From IMG/VR virus record IMGVR_UViG_2690316325_000016: a stretch of 21,799 bases of DNA; one strand, given 5' to 3'. Shown here one piece after another: positions 3,951-11,155 of this stretch (positions are counted from its first letter, which is position 1; each line of letters starts with the position of its first letter). The notes beneath the pieces were generated by a model, which was given only the letters and a program-made list of their open reading frames with translations, had not been told where the DNA came from and made no database searches. The position numbers were made by a program, and so were the translations under genes. This DNA is from a virus (lineage: Duplodnaviria; Heunggongvirae; Uroviricota; Caudoviricetes).

Positions 3951-4244
3951 ATGAAAAAAATGTTGTTTTCTGCCGCTCTGGCAATGCTTATTACAGGATG
4001 TGCTCAACAGACGTTTACTGTTGGAAACAAACCGACAGCAGTAACACCAAAGGAAACCATCACCCATCATTTCTTCGTTTCGGGAATTGGACAGGAGAAA
4101 ACTGTTGATGCAGCCAAAATTTGTGGCGGCGCAGAAAATGTTGTTAAAACAGAAACCCAGCAAACATTCGTAAATGGATTTCTCGGTTTTATTACTTTAG
4201 GCATTTATACTCCACTGGAAGCGCGTGTGTATTGCTCACAATAA
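3951..4244 (+). CDS. bor: Bor outer-membrane lipoprotein (serum resistance, lysogenic conversion)
   Basis: 97 aa, signal peptide with lipobox LITGC, near-identity to recalled lambda Bor; opposite strand to late operon as in lambda. Confidence 0.9.
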   Translation: MKKMLFSAALAMLITGCAQQTFTVGNKPTAVTPKETITHHFFVSGIGQEKTVDAAKICGGAENVVKTETQQTFVNGFLGFITLGIYTPLEARVYCSQ

Positions 4245-4275: not shown

Positions 4276-4737
4276 CTATCTGCACTGCTCATTAATATAC
4301 TTCTGGGTTCCTTCCAGTTGTTTTTGCATAGTGATCACCCTCTCTCTGAGGGTGAAATAATCCCGTTCAGCGGTGTCTGCCAGTCGGGGGCTGGTTGCAT
4401 TATCCACGCCGGAGGCGGTGGTGGCTTCACGCACTGACTGACAGACTGCTTTGATGTGCAACCGACGACGACCAGCGGCAACATCAGCGCGCAGAGTTTC
4501 ATTTTCAGCTTTCGCATTGGCTAATTCTCTCGAGTACTTTGCATCGAGTGCAGCAACATCACGCTGACGCTGCTGCATGTCAGCGATGGTGGCGATCGCC
4601 TGCTTCAGCTCACTGACTTTTTTATCACGCTGTTCTTTGTAGGCGATGGCGTTATCACGGTAATGATTGACCGCCCACGACAGGCAGACGATGATGCAGA
4701 TAACCAAAGCATAAATAATCGCGGCGACTCTGCTCAC
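4276..4737 (-). CDS. rz: Rz i-spanin (inner-membrane spanin); GTG start overlapping endolysin stop (track shows a TTG start at 4752)
   Basis: N-terminal TM segment then coiled-coil region; close match to recalled lambda Rz; GGGGGA upstream of GTG 4737. Confidence 0.9.
4335..4517 (-). CDS. rz1: Rz1 o-spanin lipoprotein, embedded in the +1 frame of Rz
   Basis: 60 aa, lipobox LVVVGC, proline-rich; fully nested within Rz. Confidence 0.9.
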
Positions 4738-5267
4738 TGCTCTATCCCCCAACAGGCTAATGCGCTTTCCTGGTCACGACGAATAACCTGTCCATAGCAG
4801 TTATTTGAACGTATGCGGCAATCGCGCCCACCATCTTTTATCCACCAGCGAATCGCCTCGCATGCGCCCTTACGATCACCGGCATTCAGCCGCTTATAAA
4901 ACGTCGACGGGAAACACTTACCGGGGCCAATGTTATAGGGACAGAATGACGCTATACCCGCTTTTTGTGGTTCGGTCAGTGGTACTTTAATATTGCGCTC
5001 CACCCATGCCAGCGCCTTATCACGCTCAATGGCGTTGACCTGGTCGCATTTTTCCTTCGACAGTTTCATACCGGGAAAAACGGGTTTTCCATCCACCATC
5101 GTGGCACCCCGACAGATGGTCCAGATGCCGGACCCATCGCGGTATGCCGTTGTGTGGTTACCTTCTTTTTCATCCAGAAACTGGTCGAGAATATCAGGCG
5201 CGGGCGCACCGACGGCAATCAGTGCCAGAACGGCAGCCGACAGGCCGTATCTGATTTTTGCGTTCAT
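4734..5267 (-). CDS. SAR endolysin (phage lysozyme, T4-lysozyme-like GH24, P21 R / RrrQ type)
   Basis: 177 aa; hydrophobic N-terminal signal-anchor-release segment [21 protein letters not shown] followed by lysozyme domain. Confidence 0.9.
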
Positions 5268-5330: not shown

Positions 5331-5681
5331 TTAAGGTTGTGATTCCGGAGGAGTCTTCAGAGAACCAGTAATTCTTCCCGGTAGCTTTCCTTTGTAGGTT
5401 ATCCATACATTCTGCGCCTCTAAAATTACGGGGCGCTTTTCCGGCGACTGCTCATCCCCTTCACATAACCCGGCAGCAACATCCAGGAAGACCTGTCTGA
5501 TGCTCATTCTGGCTGCTGCCTCATAAAACTCCAGCGCGGCACCTTCAACACGGTCCAGCGAGATGTCCAGGTCAAAAATTTCACCGTCAAAGCGTTTTTT
5601 GTCCCGTAACGCTAAAGTTACCGTAACTTTATTCTCAAAATTGCGGATCCCTTTCACAATCAGTTCATAGTTTTGAGTCAT
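5331..5681 (-). CDS. Hypothetical protein inserted between holin and endolysin (YdfR-like position)
   Basis: 116 aa ORF, GGGGAGAG SD upstream of ATG 5681; occupies same slot as ydfR in Qin-type lysis cassettes. Confidence 0.6.
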   Translation of the reverse strand: MTQNYELIVKGIRNFENKVTVTLALRDKKRFDGEIFDLDISLDRVEGAALEFYEAAARMSIRQVFLDVAAGLCEGDEQSPEKRPVILEAQNVWITYKGKLPGRITGSLKTPPESQP

Positions 5682-5685
5682 TGAA

Positions 5686-5901
5686 TTACTCTCCCCGTGC
5701 AGCCTTACGACGGTCCTCTCTGATTTTGAAATACAGGTTAGTCAGATATGTCAGCAGCCCAAACAGCAGACTCCCCAGCACGCCTATTGCCGCCCACTGA
5801 GACGGGGAAACCCTGTCCAGCAACTGCAGGAACCAGTAGCCCGTTCCCACCGCTGACGTGGTGTATGACACACCTGTTGTGATTTTTTCCATCTGGTCCA
5901 T
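5686..5901 (-). CDS. Pinholin, S21/EssQ-like class II holin with dual-start motif (Met1/Met4)
   Basis: 71 aa [10 protein letters not shown]...; two TM segments and C-terminal [13 protein letters not shown]; pairs with SAR endolysin. Confidence 0.85.
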
Positions 5902-6208
5902 ACCCCGTCTCCCGTTATCCGGAAGCTGACAACAATAAAAAAGCCACCAGTTAACTACTGATGGCTCTGATAACTCATGCAAGCGTCTCAGACGACCCAC
6001 TGACACTACCGGTGAGTTTAACGATACCTTCCATTTGACTGGCTCACTTTTTATGATGATGCCGGTGCATTTATCTCCAGCACCAGACTTTCTATCTCAA
6101 CGCCATACGTTGCATTTTTGGTAATATCCGTCAGCGTCAGTGCATTTAGTCCCACTGCCAGACTGTCTTTTATGGCCTGGAATGCCGGGCCAGTACGATG
6201 ACGTAGTA

Positions 6209-6397
6209 TCACTCCGGCTCAGTTGCACCACTGACCACCACATCACCTTCTGCTGCAATCGCCTGCATCAGGGTATAAGGGGTTATGGCCACCGGACTAC
6301 CAAACGGCTGCCAGCCCTCTTTCAGTTTATGTGTCAGCTTTTCCGCAAGATCTGACGGCGGCGCCGCCCTGACAACATCATAGTATTTAAATGCCAT
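6209..6397 (-). CDS. Hypothetical small phage protein (62 aa); possibly the N-terminal part of a frameshifted longer gene extending to 6051
   Basis: ATG 6397 with GGTGGAAAG SD; a protein-like reading frame continues in a different frame downstream to TAA at 6051. Confidence 0.45.
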   Translation of the reverse strand: MAFKYYDVVRAAPPSDLAEKLTHKLKEGWQPFGSPVAITPYTLMQAIAAEGDVVVSGATEPE

Positions 6398-6656
6398 GGT
6401 TCTTTCCACCATCTGAAAAATAATTCTTTAAAATACCTGACATGTAATACAGAAAAAACACAAAACCATACCTTAAATAAAAACCTGATTATCAAGCAGA
6501 TATGCATGGATAAACTACAAGACGAGATATAAACCACCCTGTATTTAAATAAACAATAAACAACATCAGAAAAATAATTCTGCTCTATGGTTTAATTCAA
6601 AAATATCATTTATACTTTTCAGAACATCACCAGCAAGGCATAAACAAGGAAAGTAA

Positions 6657-6992
6657 ATGAAGTGGATTGTGATTGATACAGTTATCCAGCCATCATGCGG
6701 AATATCTTTTTCAGTCATATGGAGTAAAATAAAATTAATAATCTGGTATCAATCGGATGCTTTCTTACCTCCTGAAAGTATATTTACACTGACTCACACA
6801 GGCATCATGCTCAATAACAAAGTGCTACCTGTAACCATTTACAACGTAGTACCATTCAATAAAACATTCTGGAATTTAATCAAAAACAACCAGGAATGCC
6901 CTACAAATACAGATAACGTAATGAATGAATGCTTTAATAACCGTTGCACTCTGCAAATATGTCCTTATGGACTAAAACAACAAAGTCCATAA
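6657..6992 (+). CDS. AT-rich moron protein (111 aa), antisense to late operon
   Basis: AAGGAAAG SD 6 nt before ATG; TATACT -10 at 6611-6616; 11 bp stem hairpin at ORF end; 6 of 13 Ile codons are AUA. Confidence 0.5.
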
Positions 6993-6994
6993 GG
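6963..6994 (+). terminator. Hairpin (11 bp stem, 10 nt loop) at 3' end of plus-strand moron ORF
   Basis: ccttatggact-aaaacaacaa-agtccataagg; weak U-tract. Confidence 0.35.
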
Positions 6995-7009
6995 AGTTTA
7001 CTCACATCT

Positions 7010-7048
7010 GACAAAATCAATATAAACAGCCCCTCCGGAGAGGGGCTG
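7010..7048 (-). terminator. Intrinsic terminator-like hairpin plus U-tract for minus-strand transcription
   Basis: 9 bp GC-rich stem cagcccctc/gaggggctg with cgga loop, followed on minus strand by TTTATATTGATTTTG. Confidence 0.5.
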
Positions 7049-7272
7049 GAGAGTGGCGCTATGTGCCATTGCATGGTGCCGGGTGCCTCCCGGTGAATTC
7101 AGTACCAGCACCTGAATCCGCGATTATCCCATATACCTACTCGCTGATTGCCCCTCCGCACAGGGGGATTCACCATGCCAGTTTCTTTTAACAAACTCCC
7201 CGCAAACCAGACAACAGTCAACCGCCTGAATTGTGAAGTATTTAAAAATTTCTCCCGCTAACTGATACCCGG

Positions 7273-7359
7273 CTAACAGTCTGGCGTTTTCTTTTTCAGC
7301 AACGGGAAAGCAACAACCACCACACCCGCCACCAGCACACCGTCAGCCAGCACTGACAT
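7273..7359 (-). CDS. Possible 28 aa hydrophobic peptide (type I toxin-like or leader)
   Basis: MSVLADGVLVAGVVVVAFPLLKKKTPDC; no strong SD; lies in hairpin-rich region. Confidence 0.2.
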   Translation of the reverse strand: MSVLADGVLVAGVVVVAFPLLKKKTPDC

Positions 7360-7439
7360 TATCCGGCTGCTGCAATGCCACTCACAAAAACAGTAAGCAA
7401 TCACTTTTTACCGTAACAAGTGATAATCCAGATATGTAT

Positions 7440-7766
7440 CTACCCCAGATGAGTAATCCGAAGTTCATCCATACCACAGGTACTGGCTATTCTGTTGTAC
7501 TCCTGAACAAGAGCAAATAATTCTGAATTAGCAACCATGAACTCATCGCAAACCCTCTGTATAGCATCACTATTCAGAATAATAACGTCTCTTCCCGAAA
7601 GACGATCAGGAGTACAGAACAAAACTGTCAAACGGCTGAAGGCCTTTGCTCGTCCTGCATTGACTATATCAATACGCTGCCTAAGGATGAAACACCCCGA
7701 CGCCTCATCAATATTCACTCTACCCACACCATATGAATGATAAATATTTAATGCTGAAAAAACCAT
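7440..7766 (-). CDS. Moron protein at Q-downstream locus (108 aa from first ATG; track ORF begins at TTG 7793)
   Basis: Protein-like ORF in late-transcript orientation; weak RBS; 3 AGA, 2 AGG and 3 AUA codons. Confidence 0.4.
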   Translation of the reverse strand: MVFSALNIYHSYGVGRVNIDEASGCFILRQRIDIVNAGRAKAFSRLTVLFCTPDRLSGRDVIILNSDAIQRVCDEFMVANSELFALVQEYNRIASTCGMDELRITHLG

Positions 7767-7906
7767 TAGACCGTATAACAAACACTCAATCAATACTTAA
7801 CAGAACTTTTATTTTTGACAAACATAAAATATTTTCAACAATATCCTGAGCCAGGTATATTTCAGTATAAGGCTCTGCCGGAAGGAATCTGGAAGAATGA
7901 ATATAG

Positions 7907-7980
7907 CGCGCTGTACTGGATTCGAACCAGTGACCGATTGCTTAGAAGGCAATTGCTCTGTCCGGCTGAGCTAACAACGC
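7907..7980 (-). tRNA. tRNA-Arg (anticodon UCU), CCA not encoded
   Basis: Cloverleaf parsed by hand: acceptor GCGTTGT/ACAGCGC, D-arm GCTC/GAGC, anticodon loop CTTCTAA, T-arm ACTGG-TTCGAAT-CCAGT. Confidence 0.9.
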
Positions 7981-8080
7981 TGAATACCGATAATGGACCG
8001 CCATCGGGGACCCGCCCCCGCACCAACAACCCTGTTATCGTGTCGTCTGCTCTTCCTGATAAGCTAATGGCGGTTTGTGA

Positions 8081-8156
8081 TGGTGGCCCTTGCTGGATTT
8101 GAACCAGCGACCTGGCGATTATGAGTCGCTCGCTCTCACCACTGAGCTAAAGGGCC
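8081..8156 (-). tRNA. tRNA with CAU anticodon, ileX-like (tRNA-Ile2, lysidine) rather than Met; CCA encoded
   Basis: GGCCCTTTAGCTCAGTGGTGAGAGCGAGCGACTCATAATCGCCAGGTCGCTGGTTCAAATCCAGCAAGGGCCACCA; close to recalled E. coli ileX. Confidence 0.85.
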
Positions 8157-8195
8157 GGGAGCAGAATAATAACGGTCCGTAATTAATTCCGCAAT

Positions 8196-8218
8196 AAAAA
8201 ACCCGCTCGGCGGCGGGT
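8196..8218 (-). terminator. tR-prime-like intrinsic terminator downstream of late promoter
   Basis: Minus strand reads ACCCGC-CGCCGA-GCGGGT followed by TTTTTT. Confidence 0.6.
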
Positions 8219-8266
8219 TGTAGAAACTCTTCTAACGTCAGGCATAAAAAGCCCATTATTATGACG

Positions 8267-8294
8267 AATTTACCACAGATTCCGGAAAAATCAA
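8267..8294 (-). promoter_or_regulatory. Candidate late promoter (PR-prime-like) just downstream of Q
   Basis: Minus-strand -35 TTGATT, 16 nt spacer, -10 TAAATT; about 65 nt upstream of terminator. Confidence 0.35.
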
Positions 8295-8299
8295 CCTTG

Positions 8300-9121
8300 T
8301 TACCTAGTTACCTTTTTTAACTGCCGCTCAGCCCATGCTTCTTCAATATCAAACCGGGTCACCAGCGCATCATAGAATTTCTTAACTGTTTTTTCCCATG
8401 ACGCGCGTGTTATCTGGTTTGTCACCTCGCATATAGCATTAAATGCCTCCGTTGATGGTAGTCTTTCATAGCCACGACCACCACAACGCTGGCAGTCTCT
8501 GATAACAGGCATACCACGTTTTACCGACTCTTCACGATGAATGGCGACACCACGCCCACGGCAATCCTTACAGGCAGTGGAAACCTCACCCTTTCCGCCA
8601 CACTCCGGACAGGCAACTTTTACCACCTCCCTGACTTTTTTCCATTCTTCCCAGTAAGACGAATACACACCTTTCGTACACTTTGCCCATACCGGCGGCT
8701 TACCATCCGGATACTGGACCTTGTTTGTAAAAACTACGCTTTCAATAAATTTTTCCCCATAGCAACAAGGGCACTGCTTTTTACTCGCTGCGCTACGGGC
8801 ATAATCCTCAAAAGCGTACGAAGCCATAATGCGCATCACTACCGGTTTTATTTCTGCCGGAAGTTTTCTCAACGCCGCCACACGATCGCACCGACTGAGT
8901 GCATAATCTGCCAGTAATTCTGTTGCCCGCGCCCTGTCATTCATACTGATGCCCATTTTCCCCAGGAACGCAGAAAAACCCATCTCAGCCCGATTCTGTG
9001 TCATGCCCTGCGCGGCCATCACATCAGTGATACTCAGCGCATCTTTTGACGTTGAGGCCGATGCATCGGTCAGGCCAGGGGATTTTGGGGAGTAGTATTT
9101 CGGTAAATCTTCCAGTTTCAT
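8300..9121 (-). CDS. Putative late antiterminator Q (Q82/QuuQ-like family) with three CxxCGGxG-type zinc knuckles
   Basis: 273 aa; position immediately upstream of PR-prime/tR-prime and tRNAs; motifs CPECGGKG, CKDCRGRG, CQRCGGRG. Confidence 0.55.
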   Translation of the reverse strand: MKLEDLPKYYSPKSPGLTDASASTSKDALSITDVMAAQGMTQNRAEMGFSAFLGKMGISMNDRARATELLADYALSRCDRVAALRKLPAEIKPVVMRIMASYAFEDYARSAASKKQCPCCYGEKFIESVVFTNKVQYPDGKPPVWAKCTKGVYSSYWEEWKKVREVVKVACPECGGKGEVSTACKDCRGRGVAIHREESVKRGMPVIRDCQRCGGRGYERLPSTEAFNAICEVTNQITRASWEKTVKKFYDALVTRFDIEEAWAERQLKKVTR

Positions 9122-10930: not shown

Positions 10931-10999
10931 AAGTGCGGGTGCGTTGAGGATGCCTGACACATCAGCGGTGGCGAGGGATTTCTCCCCCCGCCTGGTCTC

Positions 11000-11155
11000 T
11001 TACTCCTCAGGTTCGTAAGCTGTGAAGACAGCGACCTCCGTCTGGCCGGTTCGGATTCGTACCTCGCAGAGGTCTTTCCTCGTTACCAGTGCCGTCACTA
11101 TGACGGTTAAACAGATGACGATCAGGGCGATTAACATCGCCTTTTGCTGCTTCAT
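11000..11155 (-). CDS. hokD: Hok-family type I toxin (HokD/RelF-like), 51 aa
   Basis: MKQQKAMLIALIVICLTVIVTALVTRKDLCEVRIRTGQTEVAVFTAYEPEE; AAGGAG SD; overlapping short mok-like ORF 11152-11211. Confidence 0.85.
   Translation of the reverse strand: MKQQKAMLIALIVICLTVIVTALVTRKDLCEVRIRTGQTEVAVFTAYEPEE

Follow-up and report, generated by a model that had tools for sequence, protein, structure and literature searches.

The 21,799-nucleotide (nt) stretch of viral DNA analysed here (the window; IMG/VR virus record IMGVR_UViG_2690316325_000016, class Caudoviricetes) is a lambdoid prophage with its late genes on the minus strand, and the AT-rich block between its phage tRNAs and its lysis cassette contains iraL, a gene for an IraM-family anti-adaptor of the adaptor protein RssB. 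Very probably, the block is the cargo region downstream of the antiterminator gene Q in a CFT073 potB-type lambdoid prophage, with iraL as its main gene. An earlier note on this DNA, made from its letters alone, had named the block as the likeliest place in the window for an undescribed lysogenic-conversion, exclusion or defence function. Its observation was largely accurate and its reading as an undescribed function was wrong: conversion in the broad sense stands, and iraL has been known since 2014 (PMC4045071), so that the locus is not undescribed, save for a second open reading frame (ORF) on the minus strand. The finding is thus real but mostly ordinary. What remains new is that this conserved small ORF lacks an annotation by the Prokaryotic Genome Annotation Pipeline (PGAP) in the near-identical copies inspected, and that it lies, together with a DUF3927 gene, at the position that Shiga toxin genes occupy in related prophages. 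These additions leave current understanding unchanged.

Identification of iraL

The gene lies on the strand opposite to the late genes.

6657-6992, plus strand: iraL, encoding an IraM-family anti-adaptor of RssB (111 residues), antisense to the phage late operon

Its product matches the NCBIfam model NF007393 (anti-adapter protein IraM) over residues 1–110 of 111, scoring 162.3 bits where the curated cut-off is 121, and residues 1–77 align without gaps with IraM in the Protein Data Bank (PDB; entry 8twd, chain A; E = 1.4e-31). A Pfam scan of the ORF gave no match, and the identification came from the NCBIfam and PDB sequence searches.

The distinction between iraL and iraM has already been described (Hryckowian et al., mBio 2014; PMC4045071). 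There, iraL of the uropathogenic strain CFT073 sits on the potB island, its protein shares 58.9% identity with K-12 IraM, and identity between any two iraL matches is 95% or higher; iraL is recognized by at least 95% identity to the CFT073 gene over the whole coding region, in a context of the potB-prophage type. The window protein shares 109 of its 111 residues with CFT073 IraL, relative to which it carries the changes N78S and M89L, and the coding regions differ at two of 336 nt (6889 and 6921). The surrounding 2.6 kb (5600–8198) is 98.1% identical in DNA sequence to the CFT073 potB prophage and keeps its gene order, which in CFT073 runs Q, IS200, three tRNAs, DUF3927, a pseudo-ORF, the iraM-family gene, a DUF1737 remnant and holin. 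Because of this protein identity, the shared CFT073 neighbours and the DNA identity of the region, the plus-strand ORF is iraL by the sequence criterion of Hryckowian et al.

The locus is widespread in Escherichia coli. In a megablast search of complete E. coli genomes, the whole of 6300–8000 was present in 864 genomes, with 100% identity in EC32 and 99.9% in, for example, the ST131 strains EC958 and JJ1887. PGAP annotates it as ‘anti-adapter protein IraM’, ‘DUF3927 family protein’, ‘hypothetical protein’, ‘DUF1737 domain-containing protein’ and ‘tRNA-Arg’, and the IraM anti-adapter name recurs in its annotation of thousands of E. coli genomes. When only the iraL coding sequence was used, in a more sensitive search, three groups of records emerged: 1,415 with at least 95% identity; a group at about 78%, seen in O157:H7 and another strain resembling Shiga toxin-producing E. 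coli; and about 3,300 at about 70%, which are of the K-12 iraM type. IraL is one reason why some uropathogenic E. coli hold high levels of RpoS while growing, and the window shows its gene as prophage cargo.

Expression and predicted function of iraL

Two sequence elements frame the gene.

6611-6624, plus strand: predicted iraL promoter core, with the −10 element TATACT at 6611-6616 and the published CFT073 transcription start mapping to 6624
about 6962-6995, plus strand: 12-base pair (bp) hairpin across the iraL stop codon, a candidate 3′ end or terminator with a weak U tract

The 5′ end of CFT073 iraL mRNA obtained by rapid amplification of cDNA ends has been published as ACATCACCAGCAAGGCATAAACAAGGAAA... 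and is also given as ACATCACCAGCAAGGCATAAACAAGGAAACCA (PMC4045071). This string begins at window position 6624, with TATACT 7 nt upstream, and the start lies within 4 nt of the position (about 6620) from which the earlier note had expected antisense transcription. The same note had correctly given the ORF its own Shine–Dalgarno sequence (AAGGA, ahead of the ATG), its −10 element and its orientation antisense to the late operon. The −10 element is kept in CFT073 and in phage vB_EcoS-640R1, and reads TATAAT in the 68%-identical locus of an O157 Stx2c prophage. At the other end of the gene, the stop-codon hairpin folds with −17.5 kcal/mol (z = −5.1). In these sequence comparisons the 12-bp form is specific to the iraL allele; it is the same in CFT073 and absent as such in K-12 iraM and the O157 variant, which have just a short GCCCAUAxGGGC hairpin at the site.

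The function of IraL has been established in other strains. Deletion of iraL in CFT073 lowers log-phase RpoS and halves the RpoS half-life, iraL under its native promoter increases RpoS in K-12, IraL binds RssB's N-terminal domain in a two-hybrid assay, and RssB binding and RpoS stabilization have been shown for the CFT073 and Shigella sonnei alleles (PMC4045071). The crystal structure of IraM with RssB names 15 contact residues and assigns the N-terminal domain of IraM a PmrD-like β-barrel fold (PMC10844676). Eleven of the 15 are identical in the window protein (I4, I6, W22, K26, I42, C14, F18, W30, P66, I61 and Y62). The other four are substituted: T13S and L75I are conservative, and H63N and I64V belong to cluster III, which contacts the linker and the C-terminal domain of RssB. 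This degree of contact conservation is compatible with predicted RssB binding.

We infer that the window allele would be expressed and would act like the CFT073 allele. In a lysogen, a σ70 promoter of its own would drive transcription of iraL, on the strand opposite to the silent late operon. IraL, the N-terminal domain of which matches the PmrD-like β-barrel domain of IraM, would bind RssB, the adaptor of ClpXP, so that RpoS is not handed over for degradation. RpoS would then build up even in exponential growth and raise host stress-response gene expression.

Several points weigh against a simple transfer from CFT073. The putative −35 element TTTACA of CFT073 reads TTTA-A in the window (one C missing, 6594/6595), position −1 (6623) is A rather than G, and positions 6653–6654, between the Shine–Dalgarno sequence and the ATG, are GT rather than CC. 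Because of these changes in the putative −35 element, at position −1 and ahead of the ATG, the promoter strength of the window allele may differ from that of CFT073. Moreover, the expression and binding measurements belong to the 98%-identical CFT073 allele, not to the window allele, and cluster III departs from IraM at two of its four contact residues. The cluster III changes fit the altered binding mode reported for IraL, with a predicted mechanism that is not simply that of IraM. The allele with the 1-bp deletion in the putative −35 element is common to ST131 strains (such as EC958 and JJ1887; locus identity 99.9–100%) and could change RpoS control in this lineage; EC32 and ST131 lineages may express iraL differently from CFT073.

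Organization of the block

The features of the block and its flanks are as follows, in the late-operon direction.

8300-9121, minus strand: Q antiterminator (PF03589), 273 residues
8200-8219: terminator-like hairpin
7906-8156, minus strand: phage tRNA cluster
8081-8156, minus strand: tRNA with CAU anticodon, named tRNA-Ile by PGAP
7981-8080, minus strand: degenerate tRNA-Arg-like spacer between the two tRNAs
7906-7980, minus strand: tRNA-Arg(UCU)
7440-7793, minus strand: conserved uncharacterised ORF of phrog_2873, in late-operon orientation
7273-7404, minus strand: gene for a DUF3927 membrane mini-protein of 43 residues with one hydrophobic segment, in late-operon orientation
7018-7207, minus strand: prophage small RNA (sRNA) of the STnc100 family (Rfam RF02076), convergent with iraL
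7063-7191, plus strand: short ORF inside the RF02076 match, annotated by PGAP as a truncated ‘hypothetical protein’ pseudogene
6051-6412, minus strand: remnant of a nanS-p type gene (DUF1737 plus sialate esterase), internally deleted
5686-6006: ORF of a class II holin, residues 40–102 matched
5331-5681: DUF1327 gene
4734-5267: lysozyme gene

The late-direction order is thus Q, tRNAs, a 92-residue ORF, DUF3927, STnc100, antisense iraL, the nanS-p remnant and holin. The earlier note had placed an AT-rich block between the phage tRNAs and the lysis cassette (holin, DUF1327 and lysozyme), downstream of Q, and both its composition and its location are borne out: the GC content is 0.317 at 6413–7017 and 0.391 at 6413–7906, whereas the window as a whole averages 0.477 and the lysis and Q modules on either side are at about 0.51.

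The O157:H7 Stx2c prophage has the order Q, three tRNAs, stx2cA, stx2cB, STnc100, an antisense iraM-like gene, a nanS-p type gene and holin; its STnc100 scores 158 bits, its iraM-like gene encodes 107 residues and its nanS-p type gene is intact (648 residues). From the nanS-p start to STnc100, this prophage aligns to window 6342–7236 in one piece with 68% identity. Because the nanS-p start, the iraM-like gene and STnc100 align as one unit, the iraM-like cassette is, as judged from this alignment, an old and conserved neighbour of STnc100 and nanS-p and not variable cargo. On the strength of this one-piece alignment, recent insertion of the iraL cassette was rejected. Since the same order follows stx2c in the O157 prophage, the true stx-equivalent position, on the same comparison, is upstream of STnc100, at about 7250–7905, where the window holds the DUF3927 gene and the minus-strand ORF. 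The earlier note had assigned the whole block to the Stx-equivalent locus; the Q-downstream cargo region stands, and the equivalence does not extend to iraL itself. The survey of this slot in related prophages that it had proposed shows a conserved pair of iraM-like gene and STnc100 in both the CFT073 potB and the O157 Stx2c prophages. The resulting slot map is precise: an iraM-like cassette and STnc100 form a conserved convergent pair, just downstream of the cargo at the Stx position.

Beyond iraL, the nanS-p remnant consists of two pieces. The N-terminal piece (6209–6412) matches Pfam DUF1737 (E = 2.5e-16) and positions 1–58 of phrog_143, and the C-terminal piece (6051–6212) matches positions 582–632 of the same 634-position profile; both are partial pseudogenes in the PGAP annotation. 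A search for the intact esterase domain of a NanS-p type sialate O-acetylesterase after DUF1737 found only these two profile ends.

STnc100 and its convergence with iraL

The STnc100 match covers model positions 1–206 of 206 (132.4 bits, gathering score 47; E = 5e-31), although about 14 model positions from the middle are missing in the window RNA. The hairpin at 7027–7048, with a 9-bp GC-rich stem and a U tail, forms its Rho-independent terminator; the minus strand continues with UUUAUAUUGA, and the element was picked up by a terminator scan and folds with −20.3 kcal/mol (z = −3.5). The earlier note had described the two ORFs as separated by back-to-back hairpins. Both hairpins do fold, yet the ORFs are not adjacent, as STnc100 and DUF3927 lie in between, and the second hairpin is the minus-strand terminator of STnc100 instead of a partner of the iraL hairpin.

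Both CFT073 and the O157 Stx2c prophage carry STnc100 at the equivalent site. In Stx2 phages, the reported location of the sRNA is 75 nt downstream of stx2 (PMC12370729), and an evolutionary link has been drawn between it and PasD, the immediate upstream neighbour of the sialate-esterase gene (bioRxiv 10.64898/2026.05.13.724894). A by-eye search for a σ70 promoter upstream of STnc100 (7207) and of the minus-strand ORF found none convincing, and a promoter scan of 6000–8400 gave 6 sites against 5.3 ± 2.7 in shuffled sequence, with no excess; STnc100 may be processed from a longer transcript. The short plus-strand ORF at 7063–7191, wholly antisense to STnc100, is probably spurious and not a gene.

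The proximity of the two 3′ ends raises the question of whether iraL and STnc100 constitute one convergent regulatory unit, in which iraL read-through past a U-poor hairpin would be antisense to STnc100, or the reverse, giving mutual control. In the window, 26 nt separate the ends (6992 and 7018), as against 11 nt in the O157 Stx2c prophage, the convergent arrangement is maintained across a block of just 68% identity, no proper U tract follows the iraL hairpin, and the plus strand has none at the STnc100 hairpin. These arguments are purely positional, however; some prophages (for example, the relative L005) have STnc100 without an iraM-like gene, and no STnc100-like flank is detectable at K-12 iraM. 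We therefore consider such a unit improbable, and treat iraL and STnc100 as conserved neighbours.

The minus-strand ORF at the stx-equivalent position

The minus-strand ORF matches the whole 108-position profile of phrog_2873 (PHROGs; E = 6.6e-70), a family with neither a Pfam model nor a solved structure, and had no match in Pfam, NCBIfam or PADLOC. The earlier note's statement that neither protein matches a family therefore holds for neither ORF. The ORF also exists as that note had drawn it (7440–7793), although TTG 7793 is only the start of the maximal frame; the other candidates are ATG 7766 (7440–7766, 108 residues) and GTG 7718 (7440–7718, 92 residues). The coding sequence is likely to be 7440–7718, because family alignments place the conserved start there and the upstream extension in one relative (L009) is out of frame; ATG 7766 is the alternative. 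Distant relatives have an ATG with a good Shine–Dalgarno sequence a few codons before the position of GTG 7718, and point to a shorter core of 92–95 residues.

In a word-indexed protein search, we found near-identical copies with hundreds of members each and a second clade at 54–60% identity, and an exhaustive profile search of 1.84 billion representative proteins added relatives of 91–106 residues at 32–39% identity (one at 21%). That profile search returned just 20 small relatives, none with an annotation in the sources consulted. Relatives of the ORF also lie downstream of a Q-type gene in late orientation, some with an AraC-family gene upstream and a DUF1737 gene downstream. In the divergent relatives L005 (3762–4990) and L006–L008, an insertion sequence (IS) element (rve and HTH_Tnp_1 genes) lies directly upstream of the phrog_2873 homologue, and IS insertion there yields a fused N terminus (P0017).

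A survey of 50,697 phage records by tblastn found the ORF in one phage only, mEp460_ev081; as this was uninformative, E. coli genomes were used instead, and over 1,100 sequenced genomes of this species, with the ST131 and CFT073 lineages among them, carry a near-identical copy. PGAP leaves the ORF unannotated in EC32, in CFT073 and in every sampled copy with at least 98% identity. Among the sampled RefSeq rows, 39 of 40 have no annotation over the ORF, and the exception is a 76%-identical copy called ‘hypothetical protein’.

Compared with its relative at L009:4784–5062, the ORF is 68% identical in nucleotides and 61% in amino acids over 92 codons without gaps; differences at codon positions 1, 2 and 3 number 24, 22 and 42, and the ratio of non-synonymous to synonymous rates (dN/dS) is 0.26. 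In a six-frame check, only the sense frame combined a low dN/dS with a lack of stops: the antisense frame that shares its wobble positions has a dN/dS of 0.24 but four stops. The distant homologues at 32–39% identity retain the length and the motifs TPDR, AN.EL and EYN, and the ORF is intact in CFT073 and in phage mEp460_ev081. An AlphaFold2 model (mean predicted local distance difference test score 74.5) is a two-helix hairpin with helices at residues 19–51 and 66–97 (108-residue numbering) and a confident two-helix core.

The alternative is that the ORF is not functional here, as a chance ORF or the decaying remnant of a former cargo gene. The absence of PGAP annotation even from near-identical sampled copies speaks for this, as do the lack of a Pfam, NCBIfam or PADLOC family, the lack of a strong Shine–Dalgarno sequence at any of the three candidate starts, the IS element directly upstream in some divergent relatives, and the predominance of non-synonymous changes where near-identical copies differ at their few substituted sites (3 of 3 for mEp460, 3 of 4 for CFT073). 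These features are set against the dN/dS over 92 codons with its excess of third-position differences in the sole stop-free frame, the conservation of length, motifs, ATG starts and good Shine–Dalgarno sequences in distant homologues, the PHROG profile match and the confident core of the model. On balance, loss of function is the less probable account, though one that carries some weight, and the ORF probably encodes a real small protein of the late region or cargo.

The profile and structure searches that the earlier note had called for assigned the plus-strand ORF to the IraM family and gave no informative fold match for this one: Foldseek searches of the model against PDB and BFVD returned just generic coiled-coil or helical hairpins (E > 0.09), from which no function can be deduced. 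An identity as GapR/UPF0335 was rejected, as the PDB-sequence profile matches were non-significant (E = 0.05–0.24, first 47 positions) and the corresponding Pfam model was matched by no family member.

The neighbouring DUF3927 gene is clear-cut (Pfam PF13064, 95.6 bits against a cut-off of 25; WP_000562553.1 in PGAP), and its product also matches phrog_1470, a family labelled ‘TciB-like’. At the position of stx2AB, the 92-residue ORF, perhaps together with DUF3927, may act as a new kind of factor, either expressed late or serving lysogenic conversion. This is unlikely; if true, it would place a factor of a new kind, missing from reference annotations, in over 1,100 genomes of E. coli.

Genes for defence or exclusion are frequent in the cargo slots that follow Q. 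The earlier note had included such a function among its suggestions, and a reading of the island as an anti-phage defence or superinfection-exclusion locus could further draw on the two uncharacterised small proteins and on the full PHROGs label of the DUF3927 family (‘TciB-like inhibition of cell division or resistance to colicin’). The PADLOC scan does not bear it out: IraL, the minus-strand ORF and DUF3927 had no match to the PADLOC-DB 2.0 models, and the lone match was a non-significant one to AbiEii (E = 0.019) on the DUF1737 piece of the nanS-p remnant. Furthermore, the largest gene has another documented function in RpoS stabilization, and the fold searches with the minus-strand ORF gave only generic helical hairpins. 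A defence or exclusion locus is therefore very unlikely, and the block is best read as a Q-downstream region with iraL as its main gene.

Neighbouring features

Further observations concern the surroundings of the block. In the tRNA cluster of CFT073, a tRNA-Arg(TCG) separates the CAU-anticodon tRNA from tRNA-Arg(UCU). The corresponding window spacer (7981–8080) retains the acceptor and T-arm flanks, with the central part around the anticodon arm swapped, and neither ARAGORN nor Rfam called a tRNA in it. The Q antiterminator includes a DnaJ-type CXXCXGXG zinc-finger segment (PF00684, E = 8.5e-7), which may account for the label ‘prophage chaperone’ on some STnc100 neighbours in Salmonella annotations.

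In the interval between the nanS-p remnant and the start of the holin gene, the minus strand has a strong terminator-like hairpin at 5940–5968 (12 pairs and a U run); a 2026 preprint places the prophage sRNAs PasA and PasC there (order esterase, PasA, holin). Just beyond the lysis cassette, at about 3951–4244 on the plus strand, the identical EC32 record annotates iss (increased serum survival lipoprotein, a Bor homologue), a further known antisense cargo gene. On the minus strand at about 10999–11154, the type I toxin gene hokD is annotated nearby in both EC32 and CFT073, and the CFT073 prophage also has the antitoxin RNA sok (RF01794) and DicF.

Comparison with known systems

The closest known system is the IraL locus of CFT073, which shares with the window the series Q, tRNAs, DUF3927, STnc100, iraL, DUF1737 remnant and holin, and the same −10 and start sequence. 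Unlike the window, it has IS200 between Q and the tRNAs, and its middle tRNA-Arg is intact.

K-12 IraM (b1160; 8twd, PMC10844676) belongs to the same family as IraL and has the same N-terminal domain, and the coding sequences are about 70% identical in nucleotides. By contrast, the flanks and promoters differ and the coding sequence alone aligns, and the C-terminal tail of the window protein is four residues longer. The two proteins also differ in their reported use: IraM is induced by Mg2+ starvation and touches both domains of RssB; IraL, by contrast, acts in log phase and contacted only the N-terminal domain in the two-hybrid assay (PMC4045071, PMC10844676). The IraL paper places iraM on the e14 prophage (PMC4045071); in the MG1655 record, the e14 feature stops about 270 bp before iraM.

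The iraM-like gene after stx2c in O157:H7 (WP_001303568.1) sits in the same slot, antisense and flanked by STnc100 and nanS-p, with about 78% nucleotide identity and the −10 element kept. The O157:H7 prophages carry stx2cAB as cargo upstream of STnc100, and their nanS-p is intact, whereas the window has the 92-residue ORF and DUF3927 in that place and an internally deleted nanS-p. In the window, STnc100 just precedes the esterase gene and just follows the stx slot, a position that agrees with the published descriptions of the STnc100 and PasD sRNAs.

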